From Escherichia coli (lineage in GTDB: Bacteria > Pseudomonadota > Gammaproteobacteria > Enterobacterales > Enterobacteriaceae): a stretch of DNA of 64,000 nucleotides. Where the stretch lies: the NCBI GenBank assembly GCA_025336725.1, contig GCA_025336725.1_3647.1. One strand, 5' to 3'. The notes under the pieces were generated by a model. That model worked only from the letters and a program-made list of their open reading frames with translations, ran no database searches and was not told where the DNA came from. How positions within the stretch are numbered: position 1 is the first letter of the stretch; the number at the start of each line of letters is the position of its first letter. Positions 23,058-58,762 of this stretch are shown in pieces. Both the position numbers and the translations under genes were made by a program.

Positions 23058-26000
23058 CTACAATGTTACCTGCCTTGAGGTCAGCTTTAGAGAAGCTGGG
23101 GTGCCGTTATATGTGTGTGTCCCTGAGAAGGTTACATCTGCCTTGCCGTTGGAGATGCAAACCAAAGCATACTTCCTGTCAGGTAACTGTGCCCCAGTTT
23201 CTGGGTGAGTTTTACCCACCTGGAACACGCTCGGGTCAGTAGAGTCGTGGCTATCACTAACAGAGCTTGGACCCCCCATCAACTGTGACAAGCAATTCCT
23301 TACCCATGTCCAGTTATTGTCACTAGAGAAGTCTACAGTCAAATCAAACACAACCCACTCATTTGGCTTCCACACAGGTGTTGTGATCAACTTACCAACA
23401 CCCCCACCCTGAAGGGTAGGAGATTGTTCAGTGATCAAGGCAGAGTATGCCAGAGTTCCCAACTGCATAGTCTGGCTTGCTGTCCTCACTACCTTAGAAT
23501 CAGCATCTGTGAAGTTGTTGATGATCTGGAATGTGCCATAAGTGTTTTTACAGGTAATTCTGGCATTCAGTGTATCAATCTTTCTCACATCTGCCATGGC
23601 AGTGTTAGACACAGAGAAGTCAGAAGCTTTAGCTGAGTTTGCTGCAACAGCCGGATCAACGTTGAGGGTTGCGTTGAACTGGCAGGCAGGAGTAACCAGT
23701 AGCTTGTTATCACCTATTTGCTTCCATGAAACACTTTGAACAGGGAGATTCCATTTAATACCTGAGAAAACTTTAGCAACCCTTGGTCCCAAAGCTCCAG
23801 TTCTATTGTCTTTACAGCACATAGACATAGTGATCGTTGACGGAGTTGCTTGACCAAACAATTGCTGTGCTTTTGCAGAGGACATAGTGTAGAAATTGTC
23901 CTTAACAAACTCATCAGCCGCTAACGATCCGTCAGACCTCCACCATTGTACCTGGTACCCTGTCTTATCCCAGCCACCAACCTGCTTCAAGTCCTCCCAA
24001 GAGATTTCTAGATCCCCAGTGGTAGGATTGATTGCAGCAGTTCCTGGTGTACCGGATGACCACAATGGGATATCGAACCACGCAGGTTTAACAGATTGCA
24101 CTGCGTTAGGACCTATTGCAGCAGCAAGTTGCCGGCCCATCAATACGCGAGCATCTTTCACCAGACCCCACTCGATCATAGATCCAGAGTAACCTTCTTT
24201 CTTGTAGGCTGAGGATCCGTTCAGATGGATGAGTCTGCTGCAGTCGAAGCCATACGCCCCGCCACCGTTAGGGTCTGCAAAGTTAGTTATGATTCTATCC
24301 CTAATATTTTTCCATGCCCTACCTCCAATCTCGTAGCCATGATCATAGCATCTTTGCAACGTTGTCCAGCAAATGATTGCCATTCTTCTGCCGCCCGTGA
24401 ACCCGAAAGCGCCGTCATTCAGCTCTTTCCACAGGTAACAGTTGGTTGTCCACATAGCCCTGTGGATATTGAACCAGTTTATAGATTTAGCGGAGTTGTT
24501 CCACCGAGTTCCGGGTAATTCAGGCCACACTGCATTTACTAGCATGTCCTCTGTACCAGCATCTATCAGGAAGCCTCTTACCTTCTTGCCCATACCTGCC
24601 CTGTCTTTAGCAATCCAATTGCCAAACAGTCTCAGTTTTGGACCGTAGACAACATCTTCTGGATGCTCAAAAGAAACATACTTTAGATATACTGTAGGGT
24701 CACCATAGGTGCCATCACAAACAGCTTTGTGCATGTTCTCGCCAAGATCTAAACGAAGTCCTGTTACAACTTTAGACGTGTCGGTGAATTTGTCTGTTAA
24801 ATCAAATTCATACCACCACCATCCACCGCCAAGCATGAATTTCTTGCATCGCACAGTGTCTGTATCGGATATTCTCTTATCCCCAGCAAAAGGTGAATCA
24901 GCAAACTGATAGTGCAGAGCAGTCTCGAACAGATGTGTTGATGTGCCGTTTTCTGCAAGAACTTGCTTGCCTATTAAGTCACACTTAATGATCATCACAA
25001 CACGCTTGTACCCGTTTGTTACCGGAACTTGCATAGATATAGATGTTCCGTCCATGTTCGATCTTAGTACGGTCATGATGATATAGGGGTCAACAGCGTT
25101 GCCTAAAGTTTCAGGCCCTGGGATTATCTTGTACTTCTTGACCTGCCCCATAAATCTATCACTGGCGTAAGTTGCAGCCTCTAAGCAAGAGCCTCCACCA
25201 GGTAACTCACCAGGTCCCCAGAAAAATGCGCCATAACAGTTATAAAACCACTTGTTAGGGTCGTATTTGTTCTTGAAGGTCTGAACCTCGTTGGCCTGTT
25301 TTGTCAAGAAAACCTGCGTATCTGTGAAGATTGCAGGGTTTACTCTTGACTGTCGATTAGCATACCCGGTTTGGTTAAACCATTGATTGCAAGAGTAGTC
25401 CCTCATATAGTCATAATCAGAGTATTTGTTGTTTGCATCCTCGTTCCAACACATATTGAGGTTGGTGCCGCCCATGCACACAATATATTCTTCAACGTAT
25501 TTATCACTTCTGGTAGGAACACCTATGAACCATCTGTTAACAGGCTCATCCCAAGCGGTGCGCTCATCTTTAACGCAGATCGCAATCCAGTTATGTGTCC
25601 CTGTTTTCTTGCACACATCTCGCTTCATACCGTAGTAGAATTCTTTAGTATTTGGCTCAGGTGCGCTTATTAGGTAGCTCCACGCCTGGTCCGCATAGGT
25701 TCCATTGGTACGAGGGTCATGATCAAAAGCATACATGATGATCCTTTCCCCACCAAGATGTTCGCCAAGAGTAACTTTGATATTCACATCGCCGTAACCG
25801 TTGCGAACAACATCCATATTGTCAATAGAGATGCCTCTAGGGGTGTAGGCAATTTTCAGTGAGTTATCCTCACTAGTGCCACCAAGGGTGATCCCTATGT
25901 TGTTTGTTGTCCCGTCGGCATATCTTACTGTGGCTTCCCAGCGTATTCCGAAATATCCTACATCATGGCTGACAATTTTCAGTGTACGAGCACCAGAGTT

Positions 26001-26369
26001 AGGTTTTCCAGGATCAGGCCAAGGGTTTGGGTGTTCGTGAACAGTTAACGATGTCCCGTTTTGTTCATTGACCTGCAACATTTTACCACCTCTGCCGTTT
26101 GGGTTGAACTCCCATAAGGCCTGTGTCTGCACCAAGTTATCATAGGTATTTCGTCGCTGATTATAAATCTCTTGGGTAACATCATAAGTTACTGATCCAG
26201 CATCCATTCTATGGAGTCTGACCATATACGATGTATCCCCTTCTACTGCAGGCTGAGCCGCATTCAGTCCAAAGTATATAGTATCATTAACATGGAACTG
26301 TTTGTTTCTACCGACAGTATGCCATTTACCATCAGACTGGTAAGCCGGGACAATGGTGTTCCAGTTCAA
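23058..26369 (-). CDS. large tail fiber / tailspike-like protein with putative carbohydrate-active domain
   Basis: 1103 aa; ORF-track start is TTG without good RBS; frame open upstream into 3' end of ORF 26423..28033. Confidence 0.45.
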   Translation of the reverse strand: MNWNTIVPAYQSDGKWHTVGRNKQFHVNDTIYFGLNAAQPAVEGDTSYMVRLHRMDAGSVTYDVTQEIYNQRRNTYDNLVQTQALWEFNPNGRGGKMLQVNEQNGTSLTVHEHPNPWPDPGKPNSGARTLKIVSHDVGYFGIRWEATVRYADGTTNNIGITLGGTSEDNSLKIAYTPRGISIDNMDVVRNGYGDVNIKVTLGEHLGGERIIMYAFDHDPRTNGTYADQAWSYLISAPEPNTKEFYYGMKRDVCKKTGTHNWIAICVKDERTAWDEPVNRWFIGVPTRSDKYVEEYIVCMGGTNLNMCWNEDANNKYSDYDYMRDYSCNQWFNQTGYANRQSRVNPAIFTDTQVFLTKQANEVQTFKNKYDPNKWFYNCYGAFFWGPGELPGGGSCLEAATYASDRFMGQVKKYKIIPGPETLGNAVDPYIIMTVLRSNMDGTSISMQVPVTNGYKRVVMIIKCDLIGKQVLAENGTSTHLFETALHYQFADSPFAGDKRISDTDTVRCKKFMLGGGWWWYEFDLTDKFTDTSKVVTGLRLDLGENMHKAVCDGTYGDPTVYLKYVSFEHPEDVVYGPKLRLFGNWIAKDRAGMGKKVRGFLIDAGTEDMLVNAVWPELPGTRWNNSAKSINWFNIHRAMWTTNCYLWKELNDGAFGFTGGRRMAIICWTTLQRCYDHGYEIGGRAWKNIRDRIITNFADPNGGGAYGFDCSRLIHLNGSSAYKKEGYSGSMIEWGLVKDARVLMGRQLAAAIGPNAVQSVKPAWFDIPLWSSGTPGTAAINPTTGDLEISWEDLKQVGGWDKTGYQVQWWRSDGSLAADEFVKDNFYTMSSAKAQQLFGQATPSTITMSMCCKDNRTGALGPRVAKVFSGIKWNLPVQSVSWKQIGDNKLLVTPACQFNATLNVDPAVAANSAKASDFSVSNTAMADVRKIDTLNARITCKNTYGTFQIINNFTDADSKVVRTASQTMQLGTLAYSALITEQSPTLQGGGVGKLITTPVWKPNEWVVFDLTVDFSSDNNWTWVRNCLSQLMGGPSSVSDSHDSTDPSVFQVGKTHPETGAQLPDRKYALVCISNGKADVTFSGTHTYNGTPASLKLTSRQVTL

Positions 26370-26422
26370 AGTCCTTGTTGTATGAGTCCTGCCTGTGCCA
26401 TGTTTGTCATGATAGGTTATTT

Positions 26423-28033
26423 TTACGGATACAGCCCACGTCTGTTAACATTCCTGTTATACTGGGTGACAATAACTTCGTTGGCCCCTCCGTGGTTCCA
26501 GTTGGTAGAGAATTGGTAATTTGCATCTGTAACAACCGTGCCTGCAGCATTTACCAGTTCAATCTTGTCAATAATGAACGTAGCCCCCTCTGGCTGAGGC
26601 TTCAATTTCATCTTGACTGTGTCGCCAATGTAGATATTGCTAACGCTGCTAACACCGTTAACGTCGAAAATATCATCAACTCCCCAACTGTCTACTGGGA
26701 CATTTTTATACCAATTCTCAGGAACCTCTGTGAACCCTTGACTATTAAGTCTGCCGCCAAACAGGTTATTAGAACCTGCAAAACTTCCCCTTGGAATGCC
26801 TGACCACCAAAGTTTACCATTAACAACAGTAAAAGTCCCTAAGAAACCTTCTCTGTGAATGCCTTGGAAATAAACACTTTCTGTCCAGCTAACTGGGAGG
26901 CGTTGCTCAACGTATTTGGCTGTGGCAAGAGCTTGATAGTGGATAAAATTGGCCCTGGGGCTATTGTTTGCAGACTGTGCACCAATATCATTACATAAGT
27001 TGCGAGAGAATCCGCGATACTGCTTAGTACCATTATTGAAGAAAATGCCACTTGTTCCGTACCCACGAGCCATTATTACTTCATGGGTGTAGGTAATATT
27101 TAAGGAACGCCATGTATCATCTCCCCAGACATCTTGCCCGTAGAATACGTTAACAAGCTGCTGATCATTAGGCTTGTGCATCCTCTGCGTTGCAATTATC
27201 GCCCCGTTAGGACCACACATGAATCCTTTCCACTCCTCATCTGCAGGAATGCCTTTCAAATCGTTGCGAGTAATCTGAGCAGGGGGCCAAACAAGGTCGT
27301 TTCTACTGTTGTTTCTCAGAAAGTCGTATCCAGCAATCCAAAAACCTCTAGGCCCACCGAAAATAACAGAGTTGTCATGCACCTCGCAGTTGATACTTGG
27401 GTTTTTCCAAGGGCCTGTTTCAGGATTTTCTGATGTTTCACCAATCTTTACAGGAGTTGCATGCTGGTTCTTATCTACATGTAAAGATCCGTAGGTGTTG
27501 TTACCAGACCCATACAGGTTCAGTATGCCAGTACCTTCTGCCTCTGCAATAACCCAGACAGTGTTGTTAATACCTCCCATTACCTCAATAAGGCGCTCTG
27601 GGTGGGTGTCAAGGTGCAATCCTTTAACAATCTGTTCCGGAAGAGGTGTCCACTCGTTGACGCAAACATCGTTACCACCTGCCGCAGTGGATCCGATAAG
27701 ACCTGCAGTGCAGCCGATGTAGAAAAACTGGTTATCAAAAGTCCGGATCACAAACGCACGGTCTGCTCTCCACACATGATCAACATTCCAGGCTGTCTCG
27801 CTCGGGTAGTTTATAGGGCTACGATCCCCAGTGCGACACTCCCCGAACTTGTTATAGCCAGTAATATTAAGCTGACCATCGTCAAAAAGTATAGCTAAGC
27901 TATTTACATAAGCTACTGTAGTGCTTGTACCGTCACTGTTGTCTATTGGATATGACAGAACAGCAAGTTCCTTAACTCCACTCCTCTTATCGAGGAAATG
28001 ACGACCAAGTTTTAGCAAAGGGATTGGAAGCAT
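26423..28033 (-). CDS. tail fiber/tailspike-like protein, possibly N-terminal part of the 23058..26369 protein
   Basis: 536 aa; ATG with GGAGA RBS; Gly/Asn-rich beta-rich repeats. Confidence 0.45.
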   Translation of the reverse strand: MLPIPLLKLGRHFLDKRSGVKELAVLSYPIDNSDGTSTTVAYVNSLAILFDDGQLNITGYNKFGECRTGDRSPINYPSETAWNVDHVWRADRAFVIRTFDNQFFYIGCTAGLIGSTAAGGNDVCVNEWTPLPEQIVKGLHLDTHPERLIEVMGGINNTVWVIAEAEGTGILNLYGSGNNTYGSLHVDKNQHATPVKIGETSENPETGPWKNPSINCEVHDNSVIFGGPRGFWIAGYDFLRNNSRNDLVWPPAQITRNDLKGIPADEEWKGFMCGPNGAIIATQRMHKPNDQQLVNVFYGQDVWGDDTWRSLNITYTHEVIMARGYGTSGIFFNNGTKQYRGFSRNLCNDIGAQSANNSPRANFIHYQALATAKYVEQRLPVSWTESVYFQGIHREGFLGTFTVVNGKLWWSGIPRGSFAGSNNLFGGRLNSQGFTEVPENWYKNVPVDSWGVDDIFDVNGVSSVSNIYIGDTVKMKLKPQPEGATFIIDKIELVNAAGTVVTDANYQFSTNWNHGGANEVIVTQYNRNVNRRGLYP

Positions 28034-30112: not shown

Positions 30113-30850
30113 TTAAGCATAAGATATCGTGATCCATTGACCGTTTACAAATTTTTGAATAGCACCAGTCCAATAGTCACCTTGATACGGGTGTTTATAG
30201 GCGTAATTGCCGGAGCACATTACATGCCCAGGGTATACTCTTGATTCTCTGTAGGTGGTTCTGAAACGGTTTGCTATCCTTACATCTTCAACACCCCTAC
30301 TAGGCATAGGGATAGTAAGGTTACCACTGCTATCTGCGCTACTACCATTTACCCTGCGGACCACGTTTCTCCCACCAACTGTTGCATATTGACCTCTGGC
30401 GGTTTTATCGTTACAATCTACTCTTCCCCCTATTTGAGCGCTGCCGCAGGATTGTTGTCCATTAACAGTGGCTCTAGGTATCGTTACCGCATTAGCATTT
30501 GCAGAGGAGCTTTTTGCATCATTGCATTCAAGATTCCCTTGGATAGCCAGTCTTGCACGGTTGGCAGTTATAGCATTGAGCTTCATAGCCGAAAACACAG
30601 GTTGCCCACCAGAAGGTTGAAATCTCCAACGGAAACCGTCTATTTGGTGAGAGGGATCATCAAGGTCTGTGCCGTCAGCACCACCTATGTTGTCCATAAT
30701 CCAGAAATCCATCATCGTCTTGTCTGGAGTTATGGTGGTGTATATCGCCGCATTGTCTGTTGACGCGGATGCGAACTCGATTCTTTGAAGACCTAAAGTT
30801 TGAGTCTGGATCATTGTGTCTCCAGCCTTGTCAACATAAAGGTCATCCAT
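30113..30850 (-). CDS. tail fiber 1, C-terminal part (P2 gpH / Mu S-like); frame-split from N-domain ORF
   Basis: C-terminus ..AIQKFVNGQWITISYA resembles P2 gpH end (..IQKYINGTWYNVAQV); paralogue of 32171..32956. Confidence 0.6.
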   Translation of the reverse strand: MDDLYVDKAGDTMIQTQTLGLQRIEFASASTDNAAIYTTITPDKTMMDFWIMDNIGGADGTDLDDPSHQIDGFRWRFQPSGGQPVFSAMKLNAITANRARLAIQGNLECNDAKSSSANANAVTIPRATVNGQQSCGSAQIGGRVDCNDKTARGQYATVGGRNVVRRVNGSSADSSGNLTIPMPSRGVEDVRIANRFRTTYRESRVYPGHVMCSGNYAYKHPYQGDYWTGAIQKFVNGQWITISYA

Positions 30851-31161
30851 TTCTTCAGGCGAGTATACATTGAGAACTTGACGTGCGGCAGCTTTGTCTG
30901 GAACGTCTGCTGATTATTAGTGACCCTTAAGAATCTATTATCCCATCCTGGGACAACATCTTCTGTTAAATGCTTCAACATTTGGTGAGAGAGCATGTGA
31001 AGTTCAAAGTTATCAACCTCACATGCCACTCTTTGTGTCATATCCCAACCTTTCAATCTCTCTTCTTTTTTTGGCTGAGACTTATTCAACTCTCCCGTAT
31101 TTTCAAGCACAACATCCTGATTGGCCCAAATATCAAGAGGGATAACTGGTTTAGTCATCAC
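30811..31161 (-). CDS. tail fiber 1, N-terminal domain ORF (different frame)
   Basis: AGGAG RBS + ATG; MMTKPVIPLDIWANQDVVL..KGWD.. homologous to N-domain ORF 33019..33213; last ~45 codons look out of frame. Confidence 0.5.
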   Translation of the reverse strand: MMTKPVIPLDIWANQDVVLENTGELNKSQPKKEERLKGWDMTQRVACEVDNFELHMLSHQMLKHLTEDVVPGWDNRFLRVTNNQQTFQTKLPHVKFSMYTRLKKWMTFMLTRLETQ

Positions 31162-32170: not shown

Positions 32171-32956
32171 CTATGCATAATTAACAGTGATCCATTGACC
32201 ATTTACAAGTTTTTGTAAAGGTCCTGCCCAGTAGGTTGAACCACGCATCTCTTTTTTGTCACCGAAATGCCAGCCTGTGACAACGTAGCCGTTGCGGATT
32301 GGAGATTCAGAAACGCCGTCCACAAGTCTTGCACCGATTCTGATGTCTTGCACACCTGTCTGCGGGATAGTGATCGTTACATCACCGTTACCGTTAGCCG
32401 TCACTCCGTTCACAGAGCGAACCACATTTCTGTTACCTACAACACAGTGCTGGCTTCTTACAACCATACTGTCACAACTTGCACCACCATTAACATATAC
32501 TGACCCAGCCGTCAACTGACTGGCAACATTACAGTTGGTGAATGTTGCTGTATTGCTGATAGTAAGGTTATTGCACCTCATGTTATCGACAACTTCAACA
32601 TTGCCTACCACTTTCAACAGCGCACGGTTAGCCGTGATCGCGTTAAGGTACATCAAAGTGAACTCTGGATTAATATCCGGCTGAGTTGGCTGGAATCTCC
32701 AACGAAACGCATCTACTGTAGATGTGCCACCATCATCAAACGCCCCAGTGTTATCACTTAACCCAAAGTCGAGAGTTGTCTTATCTGGACCGATAGTTGT
32801 CTCTATCCAAGCCTTATCTGTCTCGGCAGCTTTAAAGTTGATACGCTGCAAACCTAAGGGGCCTGTCATTGTATCGCCTGTAACTTTTACATACCTGGCG
32901 TCTGCCTCTTCCTTAGTAATAATCCCAAGGTTTCTACGGGCAACAGGAATGTTCAA
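32171..32956 (-). CDS. tail fiber 2, C-terminal part (P2 gpH / Mu S-like); frame-split from N-domain ORF
   Basis: C-terminus ..PLQKLVNGQWITVNYA; ORF-track start is TTG preceded by TGA TAA TAA; followed by Tfa gene. Confidence 0.6.
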   Translation of the reverse strand: MNIPVARRNLGIITKEEADARYVKVTGDTMTGPLGLQRINFKAAETDKAWIETTIGPDKTTLDFGLSDNTGAFDDGGTSTVDAFRWRFQPTQPDINPEFTLMYLNAITANRALLKVVGNVEVVDNMRCNNLTISNTATFTNCNVASQLTAGSVYVNGGASCDSMVVRSQHCVVGNRNVVRSVNGVTANGNGDVTITIPQTGVQDIRIGARLVDGVSESPIRNGYVVTGWHFGDKKEMRGSTYWAGPLQKLVNGQWITVNYA

Positions 32957-33018
32957 AAATCGCTCAGGTTATTATCACGTATTGTGATAACGGCCCTCTG
33001 TAAGGTGGGATCTGCTCG

Positions 33019-33213
33019 TCAGCAATATATTTTGCCCAAGTCCCGGAGCATATTGAAAATATAGTTAAGTTCTTCACATGACGGCTTTTGACCAAGATCC
33101 CAACCTTTTCTCCACAAATCATCAATCGGGCGTAGCCTGTTCTGTCTGTGGGTGTTAGGCAGAACCTGATCCTCCTCTGCCCAAATCTCTAATGGAAAAC
33201 TAGGTTTTGACAT
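33019..33213 (-). CDS. tail fiber 2, N-terminal domain ORF
   Basis: 64 aa; MSKPSFPLEIWAEEDQVL..KGWD.. homologous to 30811..31161. Confidence 0.5.
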   Translation of the reverse strand: MSKPSFPLEIWAEEDQVLPNTHRQNRLRPIDDLWRKGWDLGQKPSCEELNYIFNMLRDLGKIYC

Positions 33214-35995: not shown

Positions 35996-37516
35996 TTAAA
36001 TAGTTTGTTGGAAAGTTATATTACTTTCGTCGAGGTCAAACACTTCGGTCATGTTTGCAACAACATCGTTTGTAGTGTAAGCTTCGTCAGAGGCTCCCAC
36101 AGGTTTAACTTGAATTACAAGTCTGTTAAATCTGCCTATTGACACAGCAGCCGATGCAGCGCCAACTAATTGGATATTATACAACGTGTCTGCAACATCC
36201 AAGCCGTTAACAACCTGCAAAAGAGCCTCTGTAATGGCATCTTTTTCGGTAGTGGAAAGTGCAGCACCCGAGTAAGTAATTCTCATATCCAAGCGGTAAG
36301 TGTTTGCCTTAGAATAATAAATCCTTTCAGTCTGACCGTCTGATGTGGTAATATCGTAGAAGATATTCCCATAAGTTCTGTTTGTGCAAGCTATGGTTTG
36401 ATACAGCGCTTGACAAATATCCTCTGTTGCACCACCAAACACTACCACTTGAAATTTGTAAGGTGGTATACCTTTCGCATCCGTTTTATCGGTGTTGTTA
36501 GAGAACACTCTTACTTTCTCAACACCTTTCACTTCGCTTACAGCGCTAAGGATTGCAGGGCGGGTAGCTTTAGATGTCAACTGTTTAGTGCTGGAGGCTC
36601 TTAGGCGGTACTCTGAGTCTTTCTCAACATCTCTGCCCTCATTGAATCTTTCTCGGTTGGTAAGCTTGATAAATCCGCTGGGGGTAGGTGACATTGTTGT
36701 TACAGTTTCTGCCTCTCTTGACAGCTCGCCTGCCTCATTAGCAATAACATCCAAAGTGATAGTTCTTTCCCCTACAATCGGGGATACTCTGAAATCTACT
36801 CTACTATTAAGTCCAACTTGATCAAGATTTGAATTGTACCCTATCCACAACGTTCCTGTCAACATATCGATCTGAATCAAATCGTCGTTCAACAGGGTTG
36901 TATTATCGACAATGAATTGCTTAATCTCTCCGTAAAAGCTTGGCAAATCAGAAGAGTCCAGAGACTTATCTGTTAAAACCAGACTTTTTGTTTTGATACT
37001 TCCATCTGTCTGGTTGGTAATTTGAAAGTTGTATTTCCCAATTCTTAGATCTGGAGCATTTATTCTGTGAGCAATAAGATTCCCTGCTACTTGCACATCA
37101 TTGCTAAGAACAAAGTTGCCACTATCCAGCGTATAAGTTTTGGAATCGTAAATCATATTGTACGGCACAGTTGTGTTGATCGTCAACTGGCAGGTACCTG
37201 ATGATTTAGAACGGCCTCTTCGGTAAATACCCTGTCTTCCAAGAAGTTCGTCTAGGTAAATACCTTCTGCCCCATACAGCGTCTGTGATGCGTATACAGA
37301 TGCTGCCATAAGAATAAGTTGATACTCTCGCTCGTTGAAGATAGTGGTCAGCTTATCCGCAACGGAGTTACTCTGTACGTTGAAGTTTTCGCCAAAAGCA
37401 CGGATCAGGCTTTGCTTAGTTTCAACGATTAGGTCATTTAGGGTTGGTATAACGAAACCAGCCTCTGTCAATCCATACTTAGCCACGTCACTCCTCCGGT
37501 ATGAAAATCTATACAA
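35996..37516 (-). CDS. baseplate wedge protein (Baseplate_J / P2 gpJ / Mu gp47-like)
   Basis: 506 aa; N-terminal ..LIRAFGENFNVQSNSVADKLTTIFNEREYQL..ASQTLYGAEGIYLDELL.. typical of baseplate J family. Confidence 0.55.
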   Translation of the reverse strand: MYRFSYRRSDVAKYGLTEAGFVIPTLNDLIVETKQSLIRAFGENFNVQSNSVADKLTTIFNEREYQLILMAASVYASQTLYGAEGIYLDELLGRQGIYRRGRSKSSGTCQLTINTTVPYNMIYDSKTYTLDSGNFVLSNDVQVAGNLIAHRINAPDLRIGKYNFQITNQTDGSIKTKSLVLTDKSLDSSDLPSFYGEIKQFIVDNTTLLNDDLIQIDMLTGTLWIGYNSNLDQVGLNSRVDFRVSPIVGERTITLDVIANEAGELSREAETVTTMSPTPSGFIKLTNRERFNEGRDVEKDSEYRLRASSTKQLTSKATRPAILSAVSEVKGVEKVRVFSNNTDKTDAKGIPPYKFQVVVFGGATEDICQALYQTIACTNRTYGNIFYDITTSDGQTERIYYSKANTYRLDMRITYSGAALSTTEKDAITEALLQVVNGLDVADTLYNIQLVGAASAAVSIGRFNRLVIQVKPVGASDEAYTTNDVVANMTEVFDLDESNITFQQTI

Positions 37517-37551
37517 GGTATTTTACCAAATTTTGTAACAATAGTCAATCT

Positions 37552-37584
37552 GAGCATAAAAATAAACCCCGCCGAAGCGGGGCT
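37552..37584 (-). terminator. rho-independent terminator
   Basis: Minus strand GCCCCGC-TTCG-GCGGGG hairpin followed by TTTATTTTTAT. Confidence 0.6.
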
Positions 37585-37591
37585 TTAAAGG

Positions 37592-38144
37592 TTAGTCGTG
37601 AGACTCGTTCCAAGGTCCCTGGAAGCTTGAGTTAGAACGGCTTACCACAACAGTAGGACAGGATATTGCGACCCCTGTTACAGAAGACGTTGACCATGGT
37701 GTGTAGATTTCAACAACAATATCTATGGTTTGTTCACCAAGACCTGTTATCCCTACCGCACACATGCCGTTGTTGTCGTTTCCGTATTTCTTACCTGCAA
37801 GGATTTGATGTCCGGCTATCCAAACGTTGAGCTGGGGTTTCGGCAAGAGTAGCCATTCAGTTTAAAGAAGAATGTTACGTTCTTACCCTGACCTGAAACG
37901 TTATCTACGTATCTCCACCTCCAACGGCAAACCCTTTGCTTGGGAGTTATATACTGGAGCACAATCCCCGTAAGTCCCTGTGTGTGCAACAATTGCACCG
38001 AACTGGTTAGCACGGATAACAGAAGCTTCTACACGACCACGGAAGGTATCTCCGGTTGCATCTATGGTGCCTCTAAAGCTACCATTATTGGCATAAATAT
38101 CCCCACGGAAGGTACCACTAGTGGCGTTAACTGCCCCCGTGAAG
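37592..38144 (-). pseudogene. frameshifted 3' continuation of lambda J-like gene (receptor-binding region in three frames)
   Basis: After stop at 38145 a -1 frame encodes ..GNFTGAVNATSGTFRGDIYANNGSFRGTIDATGDTFRG.. (lambda J C-terminal-like), then two more frame changes (ORFs 37816..38013, 37592..37846). Confidence 0.5.
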
Positions 38145-41100
38145 TTACCAGAACTGGCGTTGAGCGTTGCCTTTCACCCACACATCCATAAATTGGGGCG
38201 TGCCCGTTCTTGTTAATATACCAACCGTATTTATGGTACTTCCGTTGCCATCGTAGTTGTTTGACGAAATCTCCTGTGCAATCTTGGCTGAAGAGATCGT
38301 GCCATTTTCTATGAAGGCATCTTTCAAGAACGCTTGGTTGTTCTTGATTGCGAAAGCAAGGGTTGCTGTTCCGTTTCCAGGGTTATATACCGCAAAATTG
38401 TTTGCACTAACCATAAAGTAGGATTGAACTTGGCCCCCAGACCCTTCCATCCCCAACTGGATACCTGCAACATATTTATTCCCTGCGGAGTCCACCTGTA
38501 TTTTTGTGCCCCACTGAGCGTTTACTTTACCCTCTAAGTCGGTTACAGCCTTAGATGTTGTAGCTACTGCAGCCCTGATCTCGGACACATCTCCAACATC
38601 ATCAATGATCTCCTGCTTAGCAACAGCAAGTTCTTGACGAATAGCTGACGCTGTTCCGTTAATCAGGTCAACAGTGGCCTGATTAGTTTCAGAAATATTT
38701 GCAGACAAATCTTTCTTAGCTTGGGTAAGCTTATTATCCAACCCCGTAATATTGTTGGTGTTGGTTGTAATCTGCCCTTTAGCAGAGGTTAATTGTTCAG
38801 ATAAGGCTGCAGTTTTCTGATTCAGCAGGTCCGTTGTGGCCTTGTTGGTGGTAGAGATCAATGTATTGAGATCAGATTTAGTGGTGTTGATCTTGCCATC
38901 TAGAGTGGTGTAGTTTTTAGATACCGTGGCGTTAGTCTGGCTAATCTTCTGGTCAAGAGTCTGAGAAGTTCTATTCAGCAAATCCACAGTGGCCTGATTG
39001 GTGCTCAGAATGCTTGCATCCAGCTCAGATCTCTGAGTATTCAACTTACCTTCCAGGCTCTTATCTCCAGCCAGATATCCTTTTTCAACATCACCGATCT
39101 GCTCGGTTAGCTCACCTTGTGCAGCAACCAGTTTTTCATCCAACGCATCTGTTTTCTTGTTAAGAAGATCAGTGGTGGATTTGTTGGTTGTCTCAATCAA
39201 CGACGACAGTTTGGCACTCTCATTATTCAAGTTGTTGGTCAACTCACCTTTCGTTGCCGTCAGCTTATTGTCCAGTGCCTCGGTTTTCCGATTAAGGAGA
39301 TCTGTAGTCGTCTTATTGGTTGATACAATCAGAGAGTTCAGCTCAGAGCTTTCCTGTGCTAAAGCATCTTCCAACTCCCCCCTTGTTGAAACAATCTTCT
39401 CGTCCAAAGCTTCAGTTTTCTGATTTAGCAGATCGGTTGTAGCTTTGTTAGTGGTCTGGATTAGAGAAGTCAGCTTGCCACTTTCTTTAGAAAGATCATC
39501 TGCAAACTTGTTCTGAGTGGCTACCAGTTTCTGGTCTAGAGTGGTAAGCGTTCCATTAACGTCCTGGAAGTTGTCGTGGGTTTCTTGGATGAATATTCCA
39601 ACCCTATCCCCCAACTGAGCATACAGCTTGTCTACTCTAGAGAACTCACCTTCCATGTGGTCAAAAGCCTCGTCAACTCTACCATCCATGTACCTGTTAA
39701 GTTCTGTGACACGATTTTCAACCTCTTCAATAGAGGAATCCAAAGTGCTCATCAACTCTTTATAAGTTTCTGTCTTTTTGAATTCAGCATCTATCTGAGG
39801 CATCAAATCCTCGATAGAGGTGTAGCAGCGTGCAGCGCATTCTACAAACTGAGAGCTACCAAAAGCGTTTGTGGTTCGAATATACCAATAATAAACCTTA
39901 TCGTTCTGCAGGCCTTCAGATGTCCAAGTTGAACCAACACCCATACGGGTGGCGTTTGAAGTAACGGTTGCATCGCTGGTGTCGGGCAACCTTGTCATAC
40001 CAGATGTCCAAAAGTCATACTGGGTGCTTACACTTGCTAAATCCCTGCTGTGTGGAATCAAGGTGATAGCAAAGTATCCCTGCTTAACCTCTACAGAAAC
40101 AGGAGCTTCAGGTGCCTGAATGTTAAACTCGCAGTACGCTTCTGGAGATACACCACCTTTATAAGATGTTGCAACCACGGTTGCTGTGTATGATCCTTTG
40201 GTCAAGCCTTCTACTCGGACAAACTGCTCAACTGTCTGTGCTGTCCAAACAATCTCTCCGTTCTTTCTTACCTGCACAATATTTTGAGCGTAAGTTCCAA
40301 CGTTGTCCCAAGCCAAAACACCGTGAGTTACTTCCCCGGCTTGGAGAACGGAATACCTGAAGTTTTGCGGTTGAGCTACACCAGATGGAGATATCGGAAT
40401 ATCTACATTACCAGAGTCCGGAAGTTGTCCTGTGGCATCATTCCACTCTTTAGCATCTTGACGGAGTTTTACCTTGACACCACCCTTTTTAGTAAACTCC
40501 CATTCAAGAACCCTCATTTCTTGGCCCACTATACCAATACTTGGGAGGTTCATTGTAACGTAACGACCAGGTTTAAATTTAAAACCTCGCATATTGCAGG
40601 TGACTTCAATAATCCTGCCAGCTCTAGCGCGTCTTAAGAAGATTGCAGAAACACGCTGGGCTTGATAAGGGCTGGTAACAAAGCGATAGTCTATATCGAT
40701 TATCTTTCTTTCTCCATCCTTCTCTATCCACTCTGGGACAAACACTGATGGAAAATCTGTTTCAGAATATCCTTTGGTCGGGCTAGTGAATCTGCCAGTT
40801 ATTGTGTTGGATCTTTTGTCAAACGAGGCTTCCGGATAGATCTTAACCTCACCACAGACACAGTCCTCACTCAGTGTCATTGTTGCAGGGCCATAGTATG
40901 CACCAACCAGCAAACCATACTTACCAGCAACATAACTAAGATCTGCACCACAGGCTTTCAGCATTTCTGCCATAATACTTGCTGGGGCCTCATCCATGTC
41001 GAACTCACCGTTAATTGTGTAACGTCGCTCACTGGTTCCGTCAGCGTTTTTTACCGCCTCGTCGCATATGTTGGCAGCCTCCTTGAAGGACTCCCAGTTG

Positions 41101-41744
41101 ATGGTCTCGTCAGGACATTTAAGGTACGTTCTTAAATAGTCTAGGATCACCAAGGCAGCGTTATTGGTATACACCTCTTTACTGATACGAGGATCATAGC
41201 ATTTTTTACCAACCTTGACGAGTGTGACGTTTGGCAACCCAAAAGGAAACTTGTTAGGGTCAAACTTGAAGCTGGCACGTAGCCAACTGATCCCTCTACC
41301 TATCATGTCTGGTGACCAAGATGGGCAGTGTGTCCCCATGAAAGGATCAGCTGTTTTTCTGTCGTTATGTAGCTCCCACGATACCAAATCTCCATACGAG
41401 GAAATAGGATTACCATCGATAAGTATATCTTCTATACCTTCCAGAGGGTGATTGGCAAGAACAATAGCACAATGAAGAGTTTTGTCTCTATCCTGCTCCA
41501 AAAACGCAAGCAATCCGGATGTGCGTGTCTTACCATACACTACAGAGCAAGGTGCAGCAGAAGATCTGAGAAGCTTTTGTCTATCTTGCTGACTTCTGTA
41601 AGATTTGTTGCCCTCAAAAATCTTATCCAGAGTTCTGGTGGTAACAGTGTTCAGGCTGTCAGCCAGAGCTGCCTTGGATGCGTTCCAGTCATAACTTGAA
41701 GATCTTGCAGAAGCAACGATGTTATCAATCATTGCAATTGGCAT
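38145..41744 (-). CDS. central tail fiber / host specificity protein, lambda gpJ-like
   Basis: 1199 aa; ..APEAPVSVEVKQGYFAITLIPH.. and ..NKYVAGIQLGMEGSGGQVQSYFMVSANNFAVYNPGNG.. match lambda J; internal coiled-coil repeats. Confidence 0.75.
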   Translation of the reverse strand: MPIAMIDNIVASARSSSYDWNASKAALADSLNTVTTRTLDKIFEGNKSYRSQQDRQKLLRSSAAPCSVVYGKTRTSGLLAFLEQDRDKTLHCAIVLANHPLEGIEDILIDGNPISSYGDLVSWELHNDRKTADPFMGTHCPSWSPDMIGRGISWLRASFKFDPNKFPFGLPNVTLVKVGKKCYDPRISKEVYTNNAALVILDYLRTYLKCPDETINWESFKEAANICDEAVKNADGTSERRYTINGEFDMDEAPASIMAEMLKACGADLSYVAGKYGLLVGAYYGPATMTLSEDCVCGEVKIYPEASFDKRSNTITGRFTSPTKGYSETDFPSVFVPEWIEKDGERKIIDIDYRFVTSPYQAQRVSAIFLRRARAGRIIEVTCNMRGFKFKPGRYVTMNLPSIGIVGQEMRVLEWEFTKKGGVKVKLRQDAKEWNDATGQLPDSGNVDIPISPSGVAQPQNFRYSVLQAGEVTHGVLAWDNVGTYAQNIVQVRKNGEIVWTAQTVEQFVRVEGLTKGSYTATVVATSYKGGVSPEAYCEFNIQAPEAPVSVEVKQGYFAITLIPHSRDLASVSTQYDFWTSGMTRLPDTSDATVTSNATRMGVGSTWTSEGLQNDKVYYWYIRTTNAFGSSQFVECAARCYTSIEDLMPQIDAEFKKTETYKELMSTLDSSIEEVENRVTELNRYMDGRVDEAFDHMEGEFSRVDKLYAQLGDRVGIFIQETHDNFQDVNGTLTTLDQKLVATQNKFADDLSKESGKLTSLIQTTNKATTDLLNQKTEALDEKIVSTRGELEDALAQESSELNSLIVSTNKTTTDLLNRKTEALDNKLTATKGELTNNLNNESAKLSSLIETTNKSTTDLLNKKTDALDEKLVAAQGELTEQIGDVEKGYLAGDKSLEGKLNTQRSELDASILSTNQATVDLLNRTSQTLDQKISQTNATVSKNYTTLDGKINTTKSDLNTLISTTNKATTDLLNQKTAALSEQLTSAKGQITTNTNNITGLDNKLTQAKKDLSANISETNQATVDLINGTASAIRQELAVAKQEIIDDVGDVSEIRAAVATTSKAVTDLEGKVNAQWGTKIQVDSAGNKYVAGIQLGMEGSGGQVQSYFMVSANNFAVYNPGNGTATLAFAIKNNQAFLKDAFIENGTISSAKIAQEISSNNYDGNGSTINTVGILTRTGTPQFMDVWVKGNAQRQFW
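38640..39500 (-). repeat. tandem ~130-nt coding repeats inside J-like gene
   Basis: About 6 repeats of ..SxLxSLIxTTNKxTTDLLNxKTxALDxKLxxxxGELT..; boundaries approximate. Confidence 0.5.
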
Positions 41745-42181
41745 TAATACCTCCAGACATCAACAACGATAGAATCTTTCATGTCGAACATAAAGACCCC
41801 TTTATCACCTTTCGCCCAAATCTGGTTGTTCCAGAACACACCAGCGGTGAGCCCGTTCAGACCTTCGAAAATAACAATATCTCCACGCTGAACCTGCTTA
41901 GGAGTGTCCAGTCGAGTCATAAAGAAATCAAAAATAGTAGGCAGGTGTGTAGTTTTGAAACGAAGCATGCACCATCTTTTGCTTTCCAACTCTGTTTTAT
42001 ACGTCCCTTCGAAGTTAGAAAGAAAATCTGTTCCGTATTGGGCATCAACACACTTAGCTGCAAAGGTGCAACAATCGTGGAATCCCCATTCAAAAGGTAT
42101 GGTGGCCTCCTCGTCAAACACTTTCCACAATCTTTCTTGCCAATCCACTAAACGAGGGTGTGTGCTCATTAAACCTCCCAA
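41744..42181 (-). CDS. tail tip assembly protein, NlpC/P60-like (lambda gpK-like)
   Basis: 145 aa; candidate catalytic Cys in ..HDCCTFAAKC..; immediately upstream of J-like gene. Confidence 0.5.
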   Translation of the reverse strand: MGGLMSTHPRLVDWQERLWKVFDEEATIPFEWGFHDCCTFAAKCVDAQYGTDFLSNFEGTYKTELESKRWCMLRFKTTHLPTIFDFFMTRLDTPKQVQRGDIVIFEGLNGLTAGVFWNNQIWAKGDKGVFMFDMKDSIVVDVWRY

Positions 42182-42735
42182 ATGATCGGGCGGCTCGCCA
42201 CCTGATCCACATATTTAAAAAATCTGTCGTTATCGTTTCTTGAGCTGTGGCTTTCCTCCGTGTACCGATAAGGAAAACCTCTTAACCAGCTGTTGAAGAT
42301 GGAAGAGATGGATATGGACAAAGCGCTATTCTCTCCTGTCTGAATAGCCATATCTGTTATAAGGCCGTCAAACAAGCCATTAGTTGTGACAGGCAGACCA
42401 TTCTCCATAGCGGTAATGTACAACGTGGCACGACAACCAGAATACTCCGTCTTCAGCAGATCACCCACATACTTAGGATCAAACCCGTTTAATGTTGCTA
42501 CCACAGATCCGAAGTTGGTGGCATCTTTCTCAGACACAGCAGTTAATGTTGCTGATCCACCTATCCCTATAAAATGTTGCCCCTCAATTACTACAACACC
42601 AGTGCCTGAGCACACCCTAACAGTTCCTGTCGGTAGCTCCAGCTTTGCAGCAATTAAGATCTCAACACCATCAAGCTCCAGCTTTTCAAGAAATAAATTA
42701 TCTAATGGCGCTCTGATCATCTTAGAAATCCTCAA
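42169..42735 (-). CDS. minor tail protein (lambda gpL-like, tentative)
   Basis: 188 aa; position between M-like and K-like genes. Confidence 0.35.
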   Translation of the reverse strand: MRISKMIRAPLDNLFLEKLELDGVEILIAAKLELPTGTVRVCSGTGVVVIEGQHFIGIGGSATLTAVSEKDATNFGSVVATLNGFDPKYVGDLLKTEYSGCRATLYITAMENGLPVTTNGLFDGLITDMAIQTGENSALSISISSIFNSWLRGFPYRYTEESHSSRNDNDRFFKYVDQVASRPIIWEV

Positions 42736-43312
42736 AGAAGTTGATAACTATATTATCACCTTTTTGCATAGCATCGACTTTTTGCTTAATTTTATAAATA
42801 TCTCTGATATGAAACCTACCCTTCGGGGATTGAGTTATTATCTTCATAGTGTCCCCTGCGGCAATAGGTTTTCTAAGTCTTGGAGATATGCTTATAACAG
42901 CAGACCCAACACCATCGCTACGCACTGGAGCTGTTACCACTTTCAATTCATCATTGACAGATATTTTATCCCCAGCTCTGGCTATGTCTCTGTTTGGCTC
43001 CCACCCAACCGTCCTCAAAAAATCATCGTTACCAGTAGGCCCAAGGGCGATTGGCTCATTAGCTGTTACTGAGTGACCGTAAGTTTTAATAAGAAAGATG
43101 TTTCCATCTTTATACACCTGATCAACAAAGCTCTTAAGCTCTAGCAACTGTGACTCGCTGATATTGGAAACCGTCAAAGTGCCTTTCCAGTTAGGTGTGG
43201 CATAGGTTACTTTTTGCGTTTTACCTGTAAACGGACTTTTAAACGTAACAATATCTGCCAGTAGCTCCAATCTAATATCTGGAAGGTATCTAGGCCTTTC
43301 CCATAAAAACAT
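42722..43312 (-). CDS. minor tail protein (lambda gpM-like N-terminal region, tentative)
   Basis: 196 aa; ..GTLTVSNISESQLLELKSFVDQ.. resembles lambda gpM ..YSVTLSVPREEATVLESFLEEHG.. Confidence 0.35.
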   Translation of the reverse strand: MFLWERPRYLPDIRLELLADIVTFKSPFTGKTQKVTYATPNWKGTLTVSNISESQLLELKSFVDQVYKDGNIFLIKTYGHSVTANEPIALGPTGNDDFLRTVGWEPNRDIARAGDKISVNDELKVVTAPVRSDGVGSAVISISPRLRKPIAAGDTMKIITQSPKGRFHIRDIYKIKQKVDAMQKGDNIVINFFEDF

Positions 43313-50533: not shown

Positions 50534-51118
50534 TTAGTTAACATCAATAGCACGACCAGACTGGTTGGCAATAGCCTCATCATTGGAGGTAGCAATAACA
50601 CCAGAGTATTCGCGCTCATCTGGAGCAAGCGTCCAGGTATTGCGGTTAATGGTTTGTTCTGCCTCAGTCATCAGCAGATCTTTATCCTGAGTCAACAGAG
50701 AGCCTACAGGGATCGGGTTTTCCATCTCAGGACCAGCATACTGGTTCCACCATGTGGCATCTCCGGTTCTAGGCAATCTGAAGTTGATCAGGTAGTACAG
50801 TTTATTAGCCCACTTAATCCAACCCTCATCATCACAGAGAGAGGTTGTCCCAGAATCAGGCTGTGGGTAGGTGAACTGATCAAGACCTACGAAAGCCAGC
50901 CTTACAATCTCGTTCTCTTTGGTAACAACCTCAAAGAACGCTTGGTATGTTCTAGATCTTCGATCCATGGTAGACTGGAAGTTTATGATGTTTAGCACAT
51001 CCGGCTCTTGTCTTGCCACTTCCATAATCTTGTTATCAAGAACAGTCTTCATGACCTTCTTGCTGAGAAAGTCCATATAAGGGAGCAAACAGCTCGTCAG
51101 CAGCCAGCTCCCTTCCAC
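50534..51118 (-). CDS. baseplate wedge protein gp25/W-like, C-terminal part (frame-split)
   Basis: ORF-track GTG start without RBS; ..KIMEVARQEPDVLNIINF.. downstream of N-part in another frame. Confidence 0.4.
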   Translation of the reverse strand: MEGSWLLTSCLLPYMDFLSKKVMKTVLDNKIMEVARQEPDVLNIINFQSTMDRRSRTYQAFFEVVTKENEIVRLAFVGLDQFTYPQPDSGTTSLCDDEGWIKWANKLYYLINFRLPRTGDATWWNQYAGPEMENPIPVGSLLTQDKDLLMTEAEQTINRNTWTLAPDEREYSGVIATSNDEAIANQSGRAIDVN

Positions 51119-51246
51119 GTATTAAACCTCATCCACAAGCGCTGGCGCAGACTTACCTGGTTTGAATCTATCAACTCAAGACCTTTGTCTATCGCCAAAT
51201 CGCCTGTCTGCGGGTCCATCAATATGTCACTATAAAGCGTAGCCAT
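51097..51246 (-). CDS. baseplate wedge protein gp25/W-like, N-terminal part (49 aa ORF)
   Basis: ATG at 51246 with AGGG RBS right after gpV-like stop; MATLYSDILMDPQTGDLAIDKGLELIDSNQVSLRQRLWMRFNTWKG matches gp25/W N-terminal pattern. Confidence 0.4.
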   Translation of the reverse strand: MATLYSDILMDPQTGDLAIDKGLELIDSNQVSLRQRLWMRFNTWKGAGC

Positions 51247-53332: not shown

Positions 53333-53878
53333 TTATTTTCCGTTAACTTTGTTGTAGTTCCCCTGCTCAGATGGGACTATGGTGGAAGGTCTTCCATATT
53401 CCTGATAATACCAATCTGCAGCCGATTGGGTAACACCGTTTTCATCTGTCCACATCATGGATTTGTATGGCTGCCACTCTTCTGCAGCATTTGTGGACGC
53501 GGTGTCTGCAAATGCCCCTGTGTCTCTCTTGTTACCTACGTTACTACCATTCTTGCAATCGTTGACAGCCCCTTTTTGCTGGGTCTTGCCGACCTTCTTG
53601 GGGTTGCTGTATACAGTTGCATTAACAACCTTGTTCAAGTAGAATGTGCGGAATTCTGTAAGTTCCACATCAAACACCATTGCAGCACCCTCACCAACAG
53701 ACTTGTTGGCAGAAAGACTGGTTATAATGTAGTTTTCAAGGAGTCTCTCTTCAGTAACTAAAGAAACCAACTGCCGCTTATTAATGATCTCGTCAAAGTT
53801 TCCAGTGCAGCGCCGCAAGTCGCATAGACGCTGCAGGGTTTTTAGAGTCAGTATTCCTGTCAATGTAGTTTTGCTCAT
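53333..53878 (-). CDS. hypothetical tail protein
   Basis: 181 aa; ATG at 53878 directly after in-frame TAA; overlaps upstream ORF by 86 nt. Confidence 0.4.
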   Translation of the reverse strand: MSKTTLTGILTLKTLQRLCDLRRCTGNFDEIINKRQLVSLVTEERLLENYIITSLSANKSVGEGAAMVFDVELTEFRTFYLNKVVNATVYSNPKKVGKTQQKGAVNDCKNGSNVGNKRDTGAFADTASTNAAEEWQPYKSMMWTDENGVTQSAADWYYQEYGRPSTIVPSEQGNYNKVNGK

Positions 53879-54218
53879 AGATTATATGTGGTGATGTATT
53901 TACCCTACCAGTAAAAGAAAATACACCATCTTTAATTACAGCGTGGTCTGACAGGGTAGATTTATCTTCCACCGCAAACCCAGTCTTATCAACAGAATGT
54001 TTGAAAGAATAGTTCTCAACCTGGTCGAAGATAATGGCAAGATCGTTAGTAAAGTTTTTACCCTTCATCTCCGTATTGCGACCACCATAGTTAAGACCGC
54101 TGACAAACATAGTATACTTTACATCGCTTTCAGTTTGCTGCTCTGCCTTTTCAGCCTTTGGAGATTTAACCTCTTGAGGCTTGTACAGGTCTTTTTCATC
54201 AACTATATTGCTTGGCAT
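53793..54218 (-). CDS. hypothetical tail protein
   Basis: 141 aa ORF; 3' end overlaps next gene in a different frame. Confidence 0.4.
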   Translation of the reverse strand: MPSNIVDEKDLYKPQEVKSPKAEKAEQQTESDVKYTMFVSGLNYGGRNTEMKGKNFTNDLAIIFDQVENYSFKHSVDKTGFAVEDKSTLSDHAVIKDGVFSFTGRVNTSPHIIYEQNYIDRNTDSKNPAASMRLAALHWKL

Positions 54219-54464: not shown

Positions 54465-54637
54465 AGTTCTTAATTGAGAAGCAAAACCGAGGCCACCCCG
54501 GCAACGGAAAATCCCGCCCCATTAAGGTGTCCAAAGGATTAACAAACCCGTTACCTCAAATGAAAGTATCTTTGCGAATCATATCGCTGATAGCATCCAG
54601 CTGCTGATTTCTTTCACTTAGTGGGTTGTAACGGTCA

Positions 54638-57523: not shown

Positions 57524-58762
57524 TTAACCTTTCAACCAATCCAAGTATGCAGGATCATTTTTACCTTCATCGCTGTGCCATTCGAAGCGAGAGTTGCCGC
57601 TGTTTTCAAGGATATAGCAGCCTGCATTTTTAGCATTCCACTCTTGTGTTTTCTCAGGATCGTATAAGGACTCGTCCAACCCTAAATGCTTCAGTGTCTC
57701 TTGGATGTTTGACTTCCACCAAGCCTGTCTTGGCATTCTGCCACCACGGTAGCTCCAGAAGCTGGTAGATACCTGATCGTCCTCTGCCAAAATCCAGCCA
57801 TCCTCCTCCTTATAGGACACACCTGTGAAGTAATCCCTGTCAAGGAAGGATTGAACATGATCCATCTTAAACTCTTTTTGGATATGCTTAAACAGCTTAC
57901 TACGCCCACCAGGAACGTTACAGCTTGTTGCATACCTTACCATGTCCCACATAACGAAAGGGGTTACCTTTTGATCTCTGTTTTTCAATACCTTAAAACT
58001 CATACAAGCTACCAGCTCACCGTCAGATGTAAACAGACCCTTCTTCACTTCCTTGGCGGGAGCATACCCTTGAATGTGGTTTTTCTCCATAAAGTCACGG
58101 TAAGTTTTATTGTCCACATCCCTAACTGTGCACTTTCTGGCATAGACGGTCTTCTCGTCTTTGACTCCTAAAGCATTCTTAAGATATCTCTCAATGATAG
58201 GTCTTTTCCGAGCATCCTGCCAATCACAATCCCATATAGACAACATGCGAATACCTTGTTTTTCACAGGCCTTCCTTTTCAGGATGTGGTACCATTTCCC
58301 CTTACTATCCACGGAGTGCCAATAGGCACCATTATATTCCACAGCAAGCTTAAGCTCCGGGATATAAATGTCCAGCTCCATCTTTTTCTTGGAAGGATCT
58401 TTAAAGTTGTCCAGAATCCGCACGTTCTCTTCAATATCTCCGCTATAGACACTTTTAATGAACGTCAGGATCTCTTTTTCACCATTAGACTGATTGCGAC
58501 AGCAACGAGGGCATCCTTGTCCTTTCCCGTAATGGAATTCAGGACGCTGCATGAAGATATTCCCACACTCTTTGTGGCGCATCATCATAGGCGTTGAGGC
58601 GTTCACATAAGAGTCTTCAAAATACTCATAATCCCCACCATGAACTTCTACACATCTCTCAACTATTTCTTGGAAGCTAGGAACTTTTTTCACAGAAACA
58701 GACCTTGCTGCGCAAGTCTTGCACCCTTGCCCAGATAAATGCTTGCTGGGTTTCTGATACAT
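57524..58762 (-). CDS. homing endonuclease-like protein (zinc ribbon plus nuclease-like domain)
   Basis: 412 aa between tube and chaperone genes; N-terminal HGGDYEY..C..CG..F.Q.P..H..G.GCP.C zinc-ribbon; central ..LDIYIPELKLAVEYNGAYWH.. Confidence 0.45.
   Translation of the reverse strand: MYQKPSKHLSGQGCKTCAARSVSVKKVPSFQEIVERCVEVHGGDYEYFEDSYVNASTPMMMRHKECGNIFMQRPEFHYGKGQGCPRCCRNQSNGEKEILTFIKSVYSGDIEENVRILDNFKDPSKKKMELDIYIPELKLAVEYNGAYWHSVDSKGKWYHILKRKACEKQGIRMLSIWDCDWQDARKRPIIERYLKNALGVKDEKTVYARKCTVRDVDNKTYRDFMEKNHIQGYAPAKEVKKGLFTSDGELVACMSFKVLKNRDQKVTPFVMWDMVRYATSCNVPGGRSKLFKHIQKEFKMDHVQSFLDRDYFTGVSYKEEDGWILAEDDQVSTSFWSYRGGRMPRQAWWKSNIQETLKHLGLDESLYDPEKTQEWNAKNAGCYILENSGNSRFEWHSDEGKNDPAYLDWLKG

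Follow-up and report, generated by a model that had tools for sequence, protein, structure and literature searches.

Six in-frame degenerate repeats lie in a tail fibre gene on the minus strand of the analysed DNA, a 64,000-nucleotide stretch of an Escherichia coli assembly that is referred to below as the window. We consider it probable that these repeats make up the modular, length-setting alpha-helical shaft of a lambda-J-like Vequintavirus tail fibre protein, with the shaft most likely folded as a three-stranded coiled coil. Overall, the best-supported reading is that of a static, modular spacer on which the length and reach of the fibre depend. Such a fibre shaft is an ordinary, already documented feature of J-like fibres and not an unstable repeat.

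Gene identity and anatomy of the repeat array

The repeats are located inside ORF 38145..41744 (minus strand), which encodes 1199 aa in the window and is truncated relative to intact homologues of 1381 aa. Its product is identical to NCBI entry MCT7477417.1, which is annotated as E. coli and encoded on a 122,420-nt contig. The initial annotation had described the gene as J-like, and profile searches confirmed this. Specifically, the protein carries the Pfam domains Ig_J_second (PF24489; aa 547 to 652, 39789..40106, minus strand; 107.7 bits against a cut-off of 27) and Phage_Tail_Tip/DUF1983 (PF09327; aa 1059 to 1194, 38163..38570, minus strand; 123.3 bits against a cut-off of 22), and it was matched in PHROGs to phrog_31, "central tail fiber J" (E 1.6e-158), with the match beginning at profile position 466 of 1565. 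Weaker matches were obtained to Ig_J, at 24.7 bits and thus under its cut-off of 29, and to the baseplate hub 8hqz (E 2.5e-4). The DNA matched 117 phage records, nearly all of them Vequintavirus (rV5-like myoviruses), the best being BP9 at 95.4% identity. By homology, the gene is assigned as encoding a lambda-J-like Vequintavirus tail fibre protein, orthologous to rV5 gp37.

The gp37 protein of rV5 (1279 aa) has been found in virions, and thin 70-nm fibres were observed (PMC3606486). In rV5 and other Vequintavirus phages, the same gene is found at the same genomic position with the same repeat motif as in the window, and these orthologues are about 98 to 100% identical to the window protein across both their first 694 aa and their tip domain. 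Their annotations include "tip attachment protein J," "central tail fiber J," [quoted passage not shown] and "Omp-alpha." Three companion genes are located upstream on the same strand, encoding a DUF6950 protein (41744..42181, minus strand), a phrog_2048 tail protein (42169..42735, minus strand), and a phrog_1302 distal-tail-protein-like (Dit-like) protein (42722..43312, minus strand). The protein would not be the central fibre of a non-contractile tail: the genome is that of a Vequintavirus (myovirus), in which, judging from how relatives are annotated, hub and spike are encoded by genes of their own. Its place in the baseplate was not assigned in cryo-EM studies of relatives (PMC12143355, PMC13450770, PMC11972413), and in the cryo-EM papers on phi92 and phiTE no J-like protein was placed.

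The array occupies positions 38523 to 39482. This agrees almost exactly with the interval of 38640 to 39500 first proposed, to which the minus-strand orientation has to be added, and the six copies recovered match the approximate number expected. Each copy is marked by a core motif, [ST]N[KQ]xT[TV]DL[LI]N, found at aa 765, 809, 853, 915, 966, and 1020 of the ORF (window coordinates 39452, 39320, 39188, 39002, 38849, and 38687). Successive motifs are separated by 44, 44, 62, 51, and 54 aa, that is, by 132, 132, 186, 153, and 162 nt, all multiples of three; the period of about 130 nt originally described is therefore not uniform across the array.

Within each unit, a conserved 34-aa core (e.g., SGKLTSLIQTTNKATTDLLNQKTEALDEKIVSTR) is followed by a tail of variable length. 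Unit 1 (aa 755 to 798, 44 aa; 39351..39482) and unit 2 (aa 799 to 842, 44 aa; 39219..39350) are without counterpart in the 4-unit rV5-type allele. Unit 3 (aa 843 to 904, 62 aa; 39033..39218) holds a helix break, GYLAG, at aa 891 to 895 (39060-39074) and is followed by unit 4 (aa 905 to 955, 51 aa; 38880..39032), unit 5 (aa 956 to 1009, 54 aa; 38718..38879), and unit 6 (aa 1010 to 1074, 65 aa; 38523..38717), all on the minus strand. Unit 6 closes with an additional, degenerate half-motif, TTSKAVTDLEGK (aa 1054 to 1070), directly before the tip domain.

Pairwise identity among the six cores ranged from 29 to 71% for protein and, over 102 nt, from 43 to 68% for DNA; at the DNA level, random in-frame windows of the same gene gave 26.4 ± 4.5% with a maximum of 40%. 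The longest exact word common to units within the array was 14 nt. A DNA repeat search returned a five-copy, 50-nt family at 38803-39455, with 60 to 84% identity to the reference copy and start-to-start spacings of 153, 186, 132, and 132 nt. An extra copy, at 38653, came from a related family of 35 nt. Tandem Repeats Finder, run with a minimum score of 30 on positions 36000-42000, did not detect the array; its sole report in that interval was an unrelated 10- to 14-nt repeat near 40710. An HMM of the six cores scored 55 to 61 bits on each of them, a circular result given that the same cores were its training set. The core HMM also detected three degenerate half-copies (aa 730 to 744, 1002 to 1010, and 1054 to 1070), and in the rest of the window no other match rose above E = 0.27. 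A comparison of the repeat HMM with every ORF in the window and with 149 family representatives found the motif only in Vequintavirus-type J proteins, in 6, 4, or 3 copies. Overall, the six-fold repeat is genuine, though old and diverged. Two plus-strand ORFs inside it (39117..39323 and 39157..39423) were dismissed, as they are without support and antisense to a well-supported gene.

Structure of the helical shaft

Most of the alpha-helical shaft, about 430 aa long (aa ~645 to 1075; 38520..39812, minus strand), consists of the six repeat units. It is positioned between Ig_J_second, the last globular domain ahead of the shaft, and Phage_Tail_Tip. When aa 640 to 1100 were modeled with AlphaFold2 without an alignment, near-continuous helices were predicted at aa 693 to 890 and 896 to 1078, with a single break at GYLAG. 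With a 38-sequence alignment, aa 895 to 1043 were modeled as one helix (pLDDT of 95 to 98), while aa 1044 to 1065 lost the helix at low confidence and were followed by the beta strands of the tip domain. The hydrophobic periodicity of the shaft was 3.64 to 3.67 residues, which is hendecad-like (11/3) and was matched by none of 500 shuffles; a 44-aa unit equals 4 × 11 residues, or four hendecads. The coiled-coil-like shaft that the initial annotation had proposed is thus supported by the predicted helices and their periodicity, and by a homologue from F2 pyocin whose corresponding segment is a solved three-stranded coiled coil (PMC13455828).

Comparison with solved J-like proteins located the shaft relative to known folds. 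Residues 666 to 846 of lambda J (8iyk) align to aa 497 to 680 and residues 844 to 934 to aa 1059 to 1149, leaving aa 681 to 1058 without a counterpart; since the two aligned lambda segments nearly abut, the shaft occupies the place of a short linker in lambda J. Ig_J_second and Phage_Tail_Tip occur in lambda gpJ (PDB 8iyk, 8xcj) in the same order as in the window protein, but the linker between these domains measures about 48 aa, against about 430 aa of helix here, and lambda is a siphovirus, whereas the window phage is a myovirus. The F2-pyocin fibre 25vf aligns to aa 975 to 1171 (E 3e-17), and a second solved J-like protein, 9l9p_S, has helical repeats of its own ahead of the tip domain. F-type pyocin central fibres (PyoF10; PDB 25vf, 25vj, and 26ci; F7 pyocin CFP) are J-like and, as in the window protein, place a long helical shaft between FN3/Ig domains and tip beta domains; this shaft has been solved and is a three-stranded coiled coil, kinked at a Gly (PMC13455828). 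These pyocins differ in that the fibre is a true central fibre on a non-contractile tail, and in that the repeat sequence and composition are unlike those of the window shaft.

A further likeness is to the RBPseg atlas, which was built with AlphaFold2-multimer. Fibres of its J-type "tail needle" classes TC3, TC4, and TC9 and of its class TC5 start with a hub-like N-terminus, continue as a coiled coil whose length varies, and finish in a beta-helical C-terminus; TC5 includes a Vequintavirinae fibre in which the coiled-coil domains are large and the N-terminus is central-fibre-like (PMC12143355). Coiled coils of J-type fibres are noted there to differ in length, and the atlas text consulted contains no mention of a 44-aa unit structure or of alleles with 3, 4, or 6 units (PMC12143355). 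Among J-like proteins at the level of 50%-identity representatives, we found that between 48 and ~2500 aa separate Ig_J_second from the tip domain, and linkers of about 75 to 800 aa mostly displayed a periodicity of 3.4 to 3.66 residues.

A PDB sequence search with the shaft alone gave only non-significant matches (P22-type tail needle gp26, E 0.047; RSV F, E 0.046), and a Foldseek search of the helical model against the PDB gave none at E ≤ 0.001. Pfam matches to Apolipoprotein (E 1.3e-7, 32 bits against a cut-off of 90), DUF7217, and Spectrin_7 were all sub-threshold; as identifications of the repeat family they were rejected and read as effects of periodicity and composition.

Together, these features lead us to a model in which each 44-aa unit would supply about four hendecads, or roughly 6.5 nm of helix. 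Six units plus the flanking helix (roughly 380 to 430 helical residues at 0.15 nm each) would form a rod of roughly 55 to 65 nm, a length that would fit the thin 70-nm fibres of rV5 (PMC3606486). The rod would hold the N-terminal hub/Ig-like attachment part apart from the C-terminal tip and receptor-binding part, so that it would act as a spacer determining reach. By analogy with the trimeric structures of lambda J and the pyocins (PMC13455828), the shaft would presumably be a trimer.

Allelic variation and the state of the contig

Three length classes of the protein are found in Vequintavirus phages, with 3 units (1199 aa), 4 units (1279 aa), and 6 units (1381 aa). Alleles of the rV5 type have 4 units, and 110 of the 120 closest homologues listed are 1279-aa, 4-unit proteins. 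An intact 1199-aa protein with 3 units is encoded by phage DrSchubert. The window has 6 units, as does the 1381-aa cluster representative P0001, the layout of which is identical, and the six-unit allele is present in exact form in phages BP9, VB-EcoM-WM, ECP32, YN3, ECML-10, and NHEP1. In an alignment of three shafts, the 6-unit and 4-unit alleles differed by an exact block of 88 aa (2 × 44) in register with the repeat, plus a block of 14 aa. Between alleles, the flanks are about 98 to 100% identical and the DNA of the shaft only ~75%.

The presence of 3, 4, or 6 units in old alleles argues that gain or loss by whole units has occurred over evolutionary time, as judged from these alignments; under our model, units would have been gained and lost in register to yield the three alleles. 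In addition, mismatch density between the window and BP9 is at its maximum in the shaft, and the opposite pattern is seen between ECP32 and BP9. These contrasting patterns suggest that the shaft may pass from one lineage to another as a cassette. The BASEL paper (PMC8594841) reported that the largest lateral tail fibre genes at this locus differ between alleles, and from its estimated position in that alignment, the J-like gene would be one of those variable fibre genes.

Present-day instability, which the initial annotation had anticipated in the form of proneness to expansion or contraction and to assembly collapse, was not borne out. Near-identical head-to-tail copies are lacking, given the unit identities and the 14-nt limit on exact words described above, and copy number does not vary among close relatives: the array shows no indel relative to BP9, and in a 129-member, 90%-identity cluster all 12 of the intact members listed are 1381 aa long. 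As the units have since diverged, the DNA would now be stable.

Whether the contig might carry a wrong number of repeats through collapse or expansion deserved attention, since its quality is otherwise doubtful and seven structural genes are split in comparison with BP9. Such an artefact is, in our judgment, almost inconceivable for the array. Gene positions 1 to 3503 are free of indels relative to BP9, VB-EcoM-WM, and ECP32, 80% or more of the repeat region is covered in 13 phage records, with 92 to 93% identity in the six that were listed in full, and P0001 and the intact cluster members agree with the window in layout and length, respectively. Exact words of at most 14 nt between units are resolvable at any modern k-mer size.

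The 3' end of the gene is in a different state. Comparison with four intact relatives revealed a disrupted region at 37592..38241 (minus strand), with eight uncompensated indel events at 37841-38241; these result in a premature stop at 38145 and throw the final ~210 aa of the protein out of frame. In the window copy the reading frame is lost after aa ~1170, so that the last ~25 residues of its Phage_Tail_Tip domain are already out of frame, and remnant ORFs follow the stop (37816..38013 and 37592..37846). An intact distal C-terminal (receptor-binding) region is consequently missing from the window, whereas relatives are intact at 1381, 1279, or 1199 aa, and the protein as encoded here, with its frameshifted distal C-terminal domain, may be non-functional. 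Relative to BP9, six further structural genes are split (tape measure, tube initiator, baseplate, both short tail fibre genes, and a 1878-aa fibre). These split genes and the clustered frameshifts point to a contig that is either of poor quality, with errors, or derived from a defective phage. Elsewhere in the window, an HNH/homing-endonuclease insertion of 1.65 kb (about 57545-59194) is shared with only a few relatives, and a tRNA scan found none.

Alternative functions and significance of the shaft

Several other roles for the repeats were weighed against that of a static spacer. The units or the Gly kink could act as a docking rail, with attachment sites for other fibre proteins of a branched Vequintavirus fibre network and with copy number setting how many side fibres bind, or which. 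This has a precedent in F2 pyocin, where three trimers of side fibres bind the alpha-helical shaft at a Gly-induced kink (PMC13455828), and both AlphaFold2 models of the window shaft contain one predicted helix break, at GYLAG; in addition, Vequintavirus phages have numerous fibre proteins, the connections among which are unresolved (PMC8594841, PMC12143355). We nevertheless regard it as unlikely, as no direct evidence for it was found, the GYLAG segment is missing from the intact 3-unit allele, and the shaft varies more than any other part of a protein that is otherwise ~98% conserved, an unexpected trait for a conserved docking interface. An arrangement of the repeats as a compact, antiparallel helical domain, in the manner of spectrin- or apolipoprotein-like bundles, would accommodate the sub-threshold Apolipoprotein and Spectrin_7 matches, and several units share a Gly at the same position, which might provide a turn. 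The modeled helices of 149 to 198 residues, however, pass unbroken through the unit glycines, the homologous shaft whose structure has been solved forms an extended three-stranded coil (PMC13455828), and the Apolipoprotein match can be accounted for by the 11-residue amphipathic periodicity common to both proteins; a compact bundle is thus highly improbable.

A metastable shaft of the F7 pyocin type was also considered, in which receptor binding would turn part of the coiled coil into a beta-prism, so that the fibre would shorten and a trigger signal would be relayed. In the J-like central fibre of F7 pyocin, a 163-aa coiled coil directly upstream of the tip beta domain undergoes this change, and similar switches have been predicted for the J-like fibres of many siphophages (PMC12874032). 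The strand motif involved, SxSxxMxxLxS, is 11 residues long, like the hendecad-like period of the window shaft, and four full-pattern matches alternating between reverse and forward orientation occur at aa 1023 to 1072, a weak hint confined to that segment; the loss of helix and confidence at aa 1044 to 1065 in the alignment-based model lies in the same direction. The motif is not enriched, however, either in the shaft as a whole (7 matches, compared to 5.2 ± 2.3 in shuffles) or in its last 163 aa (4, compared to 2.5 ± 1.5). Composition likewise differs, the region being rich in T, L, N, K, and S with 7.6 to 10.4% Ala, where the "small" positions of the F7 motif are 68% Ala, and aa 895 to 1043 remained confidently helical in the monomer model with 38 sequences. 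Furthermore, the tail of the host phage is contractile and equipped with a hub and spike of its own, so no fold switch would be needed as an energy source. We therefore consider this conversion quite unlikely. A more elaborate scheme, in which a myovirus co-opted a siphovirus-type tip module (the Dit-like, tail, and DUF6950 proteins and the J-like fibre) as a peripheral fibre, fibre shortening helps to trigger sheath contraction, and unit number tunes the stroke length, is in our view very unlikely.

For users of the contig, sequence quality is a more practical point than the shaft repeats: the repeat array is sound, but in view of the frameshifted 3' end of the J gene and the six other affected structural genes, the proteins called from it should not be assumed to be functional versions. 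Beyond annotation, the repeat array matters little. Within a Vequintavirus fibre protein that is otherwise highly conserved, the shaft is where length varies and divergence is greatest. The number of units (3, 4, or 6) offers a simple marker of the fibre allele, and presumably of fibre reach as well, and it may serve as a guide for the engineering of fibre length.

Frameshifts in the J-like gene and other structural genes

The lambda-J-like tail fibre gene of this rV5-like phage (the J-like gene; ORF 38145..41744, minus strand) was compared with its counterparts in four related phages, BP9, VB-EcoM-WM, ECP32, and magaca, in all of which it is intact. Eight uncompensated indel events (+2, +1, +1, −3, +3, +1, +1, and +1) were located at its 3′ end (37592-38241, minus strand), while nucleotides 1-3503 of the gene contained none. 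These indels result in the stop at 38145 and leave two remnant ORFs, 37816..38013 and 37592..37846, both on the minus strand.

Comparison to BP9, the best DNA match, revealed six further structural genes in the window that are broken into two to four ORFs each. These encode the tape measure protein (54324-56662), the tube initiator (53333-54218), a baseplate protein (50534-51246), both short tail fibre paralogues (32171-33213 and 30113-31161), and a fibre of 1,878 amino acids (22396-28033). The split genes suggest either a defective phage or consensus errors in the source E. coli assembly, as could arise, for example, where coverage was low or several phages were mixed in one population.

The shaft end and the upstream tail-tip genes

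In the AlphaFold2 model built with an alignment, both helix and confidence are lost at residues 1044-1065 of the J-like protein (38550-38615), directly N-terminal to the tip domain. [quoted passage not shown]

Immediately upstream of the J-like gene (41744-43312, minus strand) lie three small tail-tip genes of siphovirus style, which encode a DUF6950 protein, a tail protein of phrog_2048, and a Dit-like protein of phrog_1302. The set is embedded in the baseplate cluster of a myovirus, a phage with a contractile tail.

Differences from BP9 outside the tail fibre genes

Positions 1-8028 of the window carry helicase genes and did not align to the corresponding part of the BP9 GenBank record (124969-134000), which is annotated with IS2 InsA, an integrase, AlpA, and exodeoxyribonuclease VIII. 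The BP9 record may be rearranged here or may include DNA from the host or a prophage.

A 1.65-kb insertion absent from BP9 was also identified at ~57545-59194, separating the tail tube gene from the chaperone gene, where ORF 57524..58762 (minus strand) encodes an HNH/homing-endonuclease-like protein of 412 amino acids (phrog_559, E = 1.3e-88). As full-length matches to the insertion were present in only ~4-5 of 118 Vequintavirus records, its sequence probably represents a mobile homing endonuclease gene.
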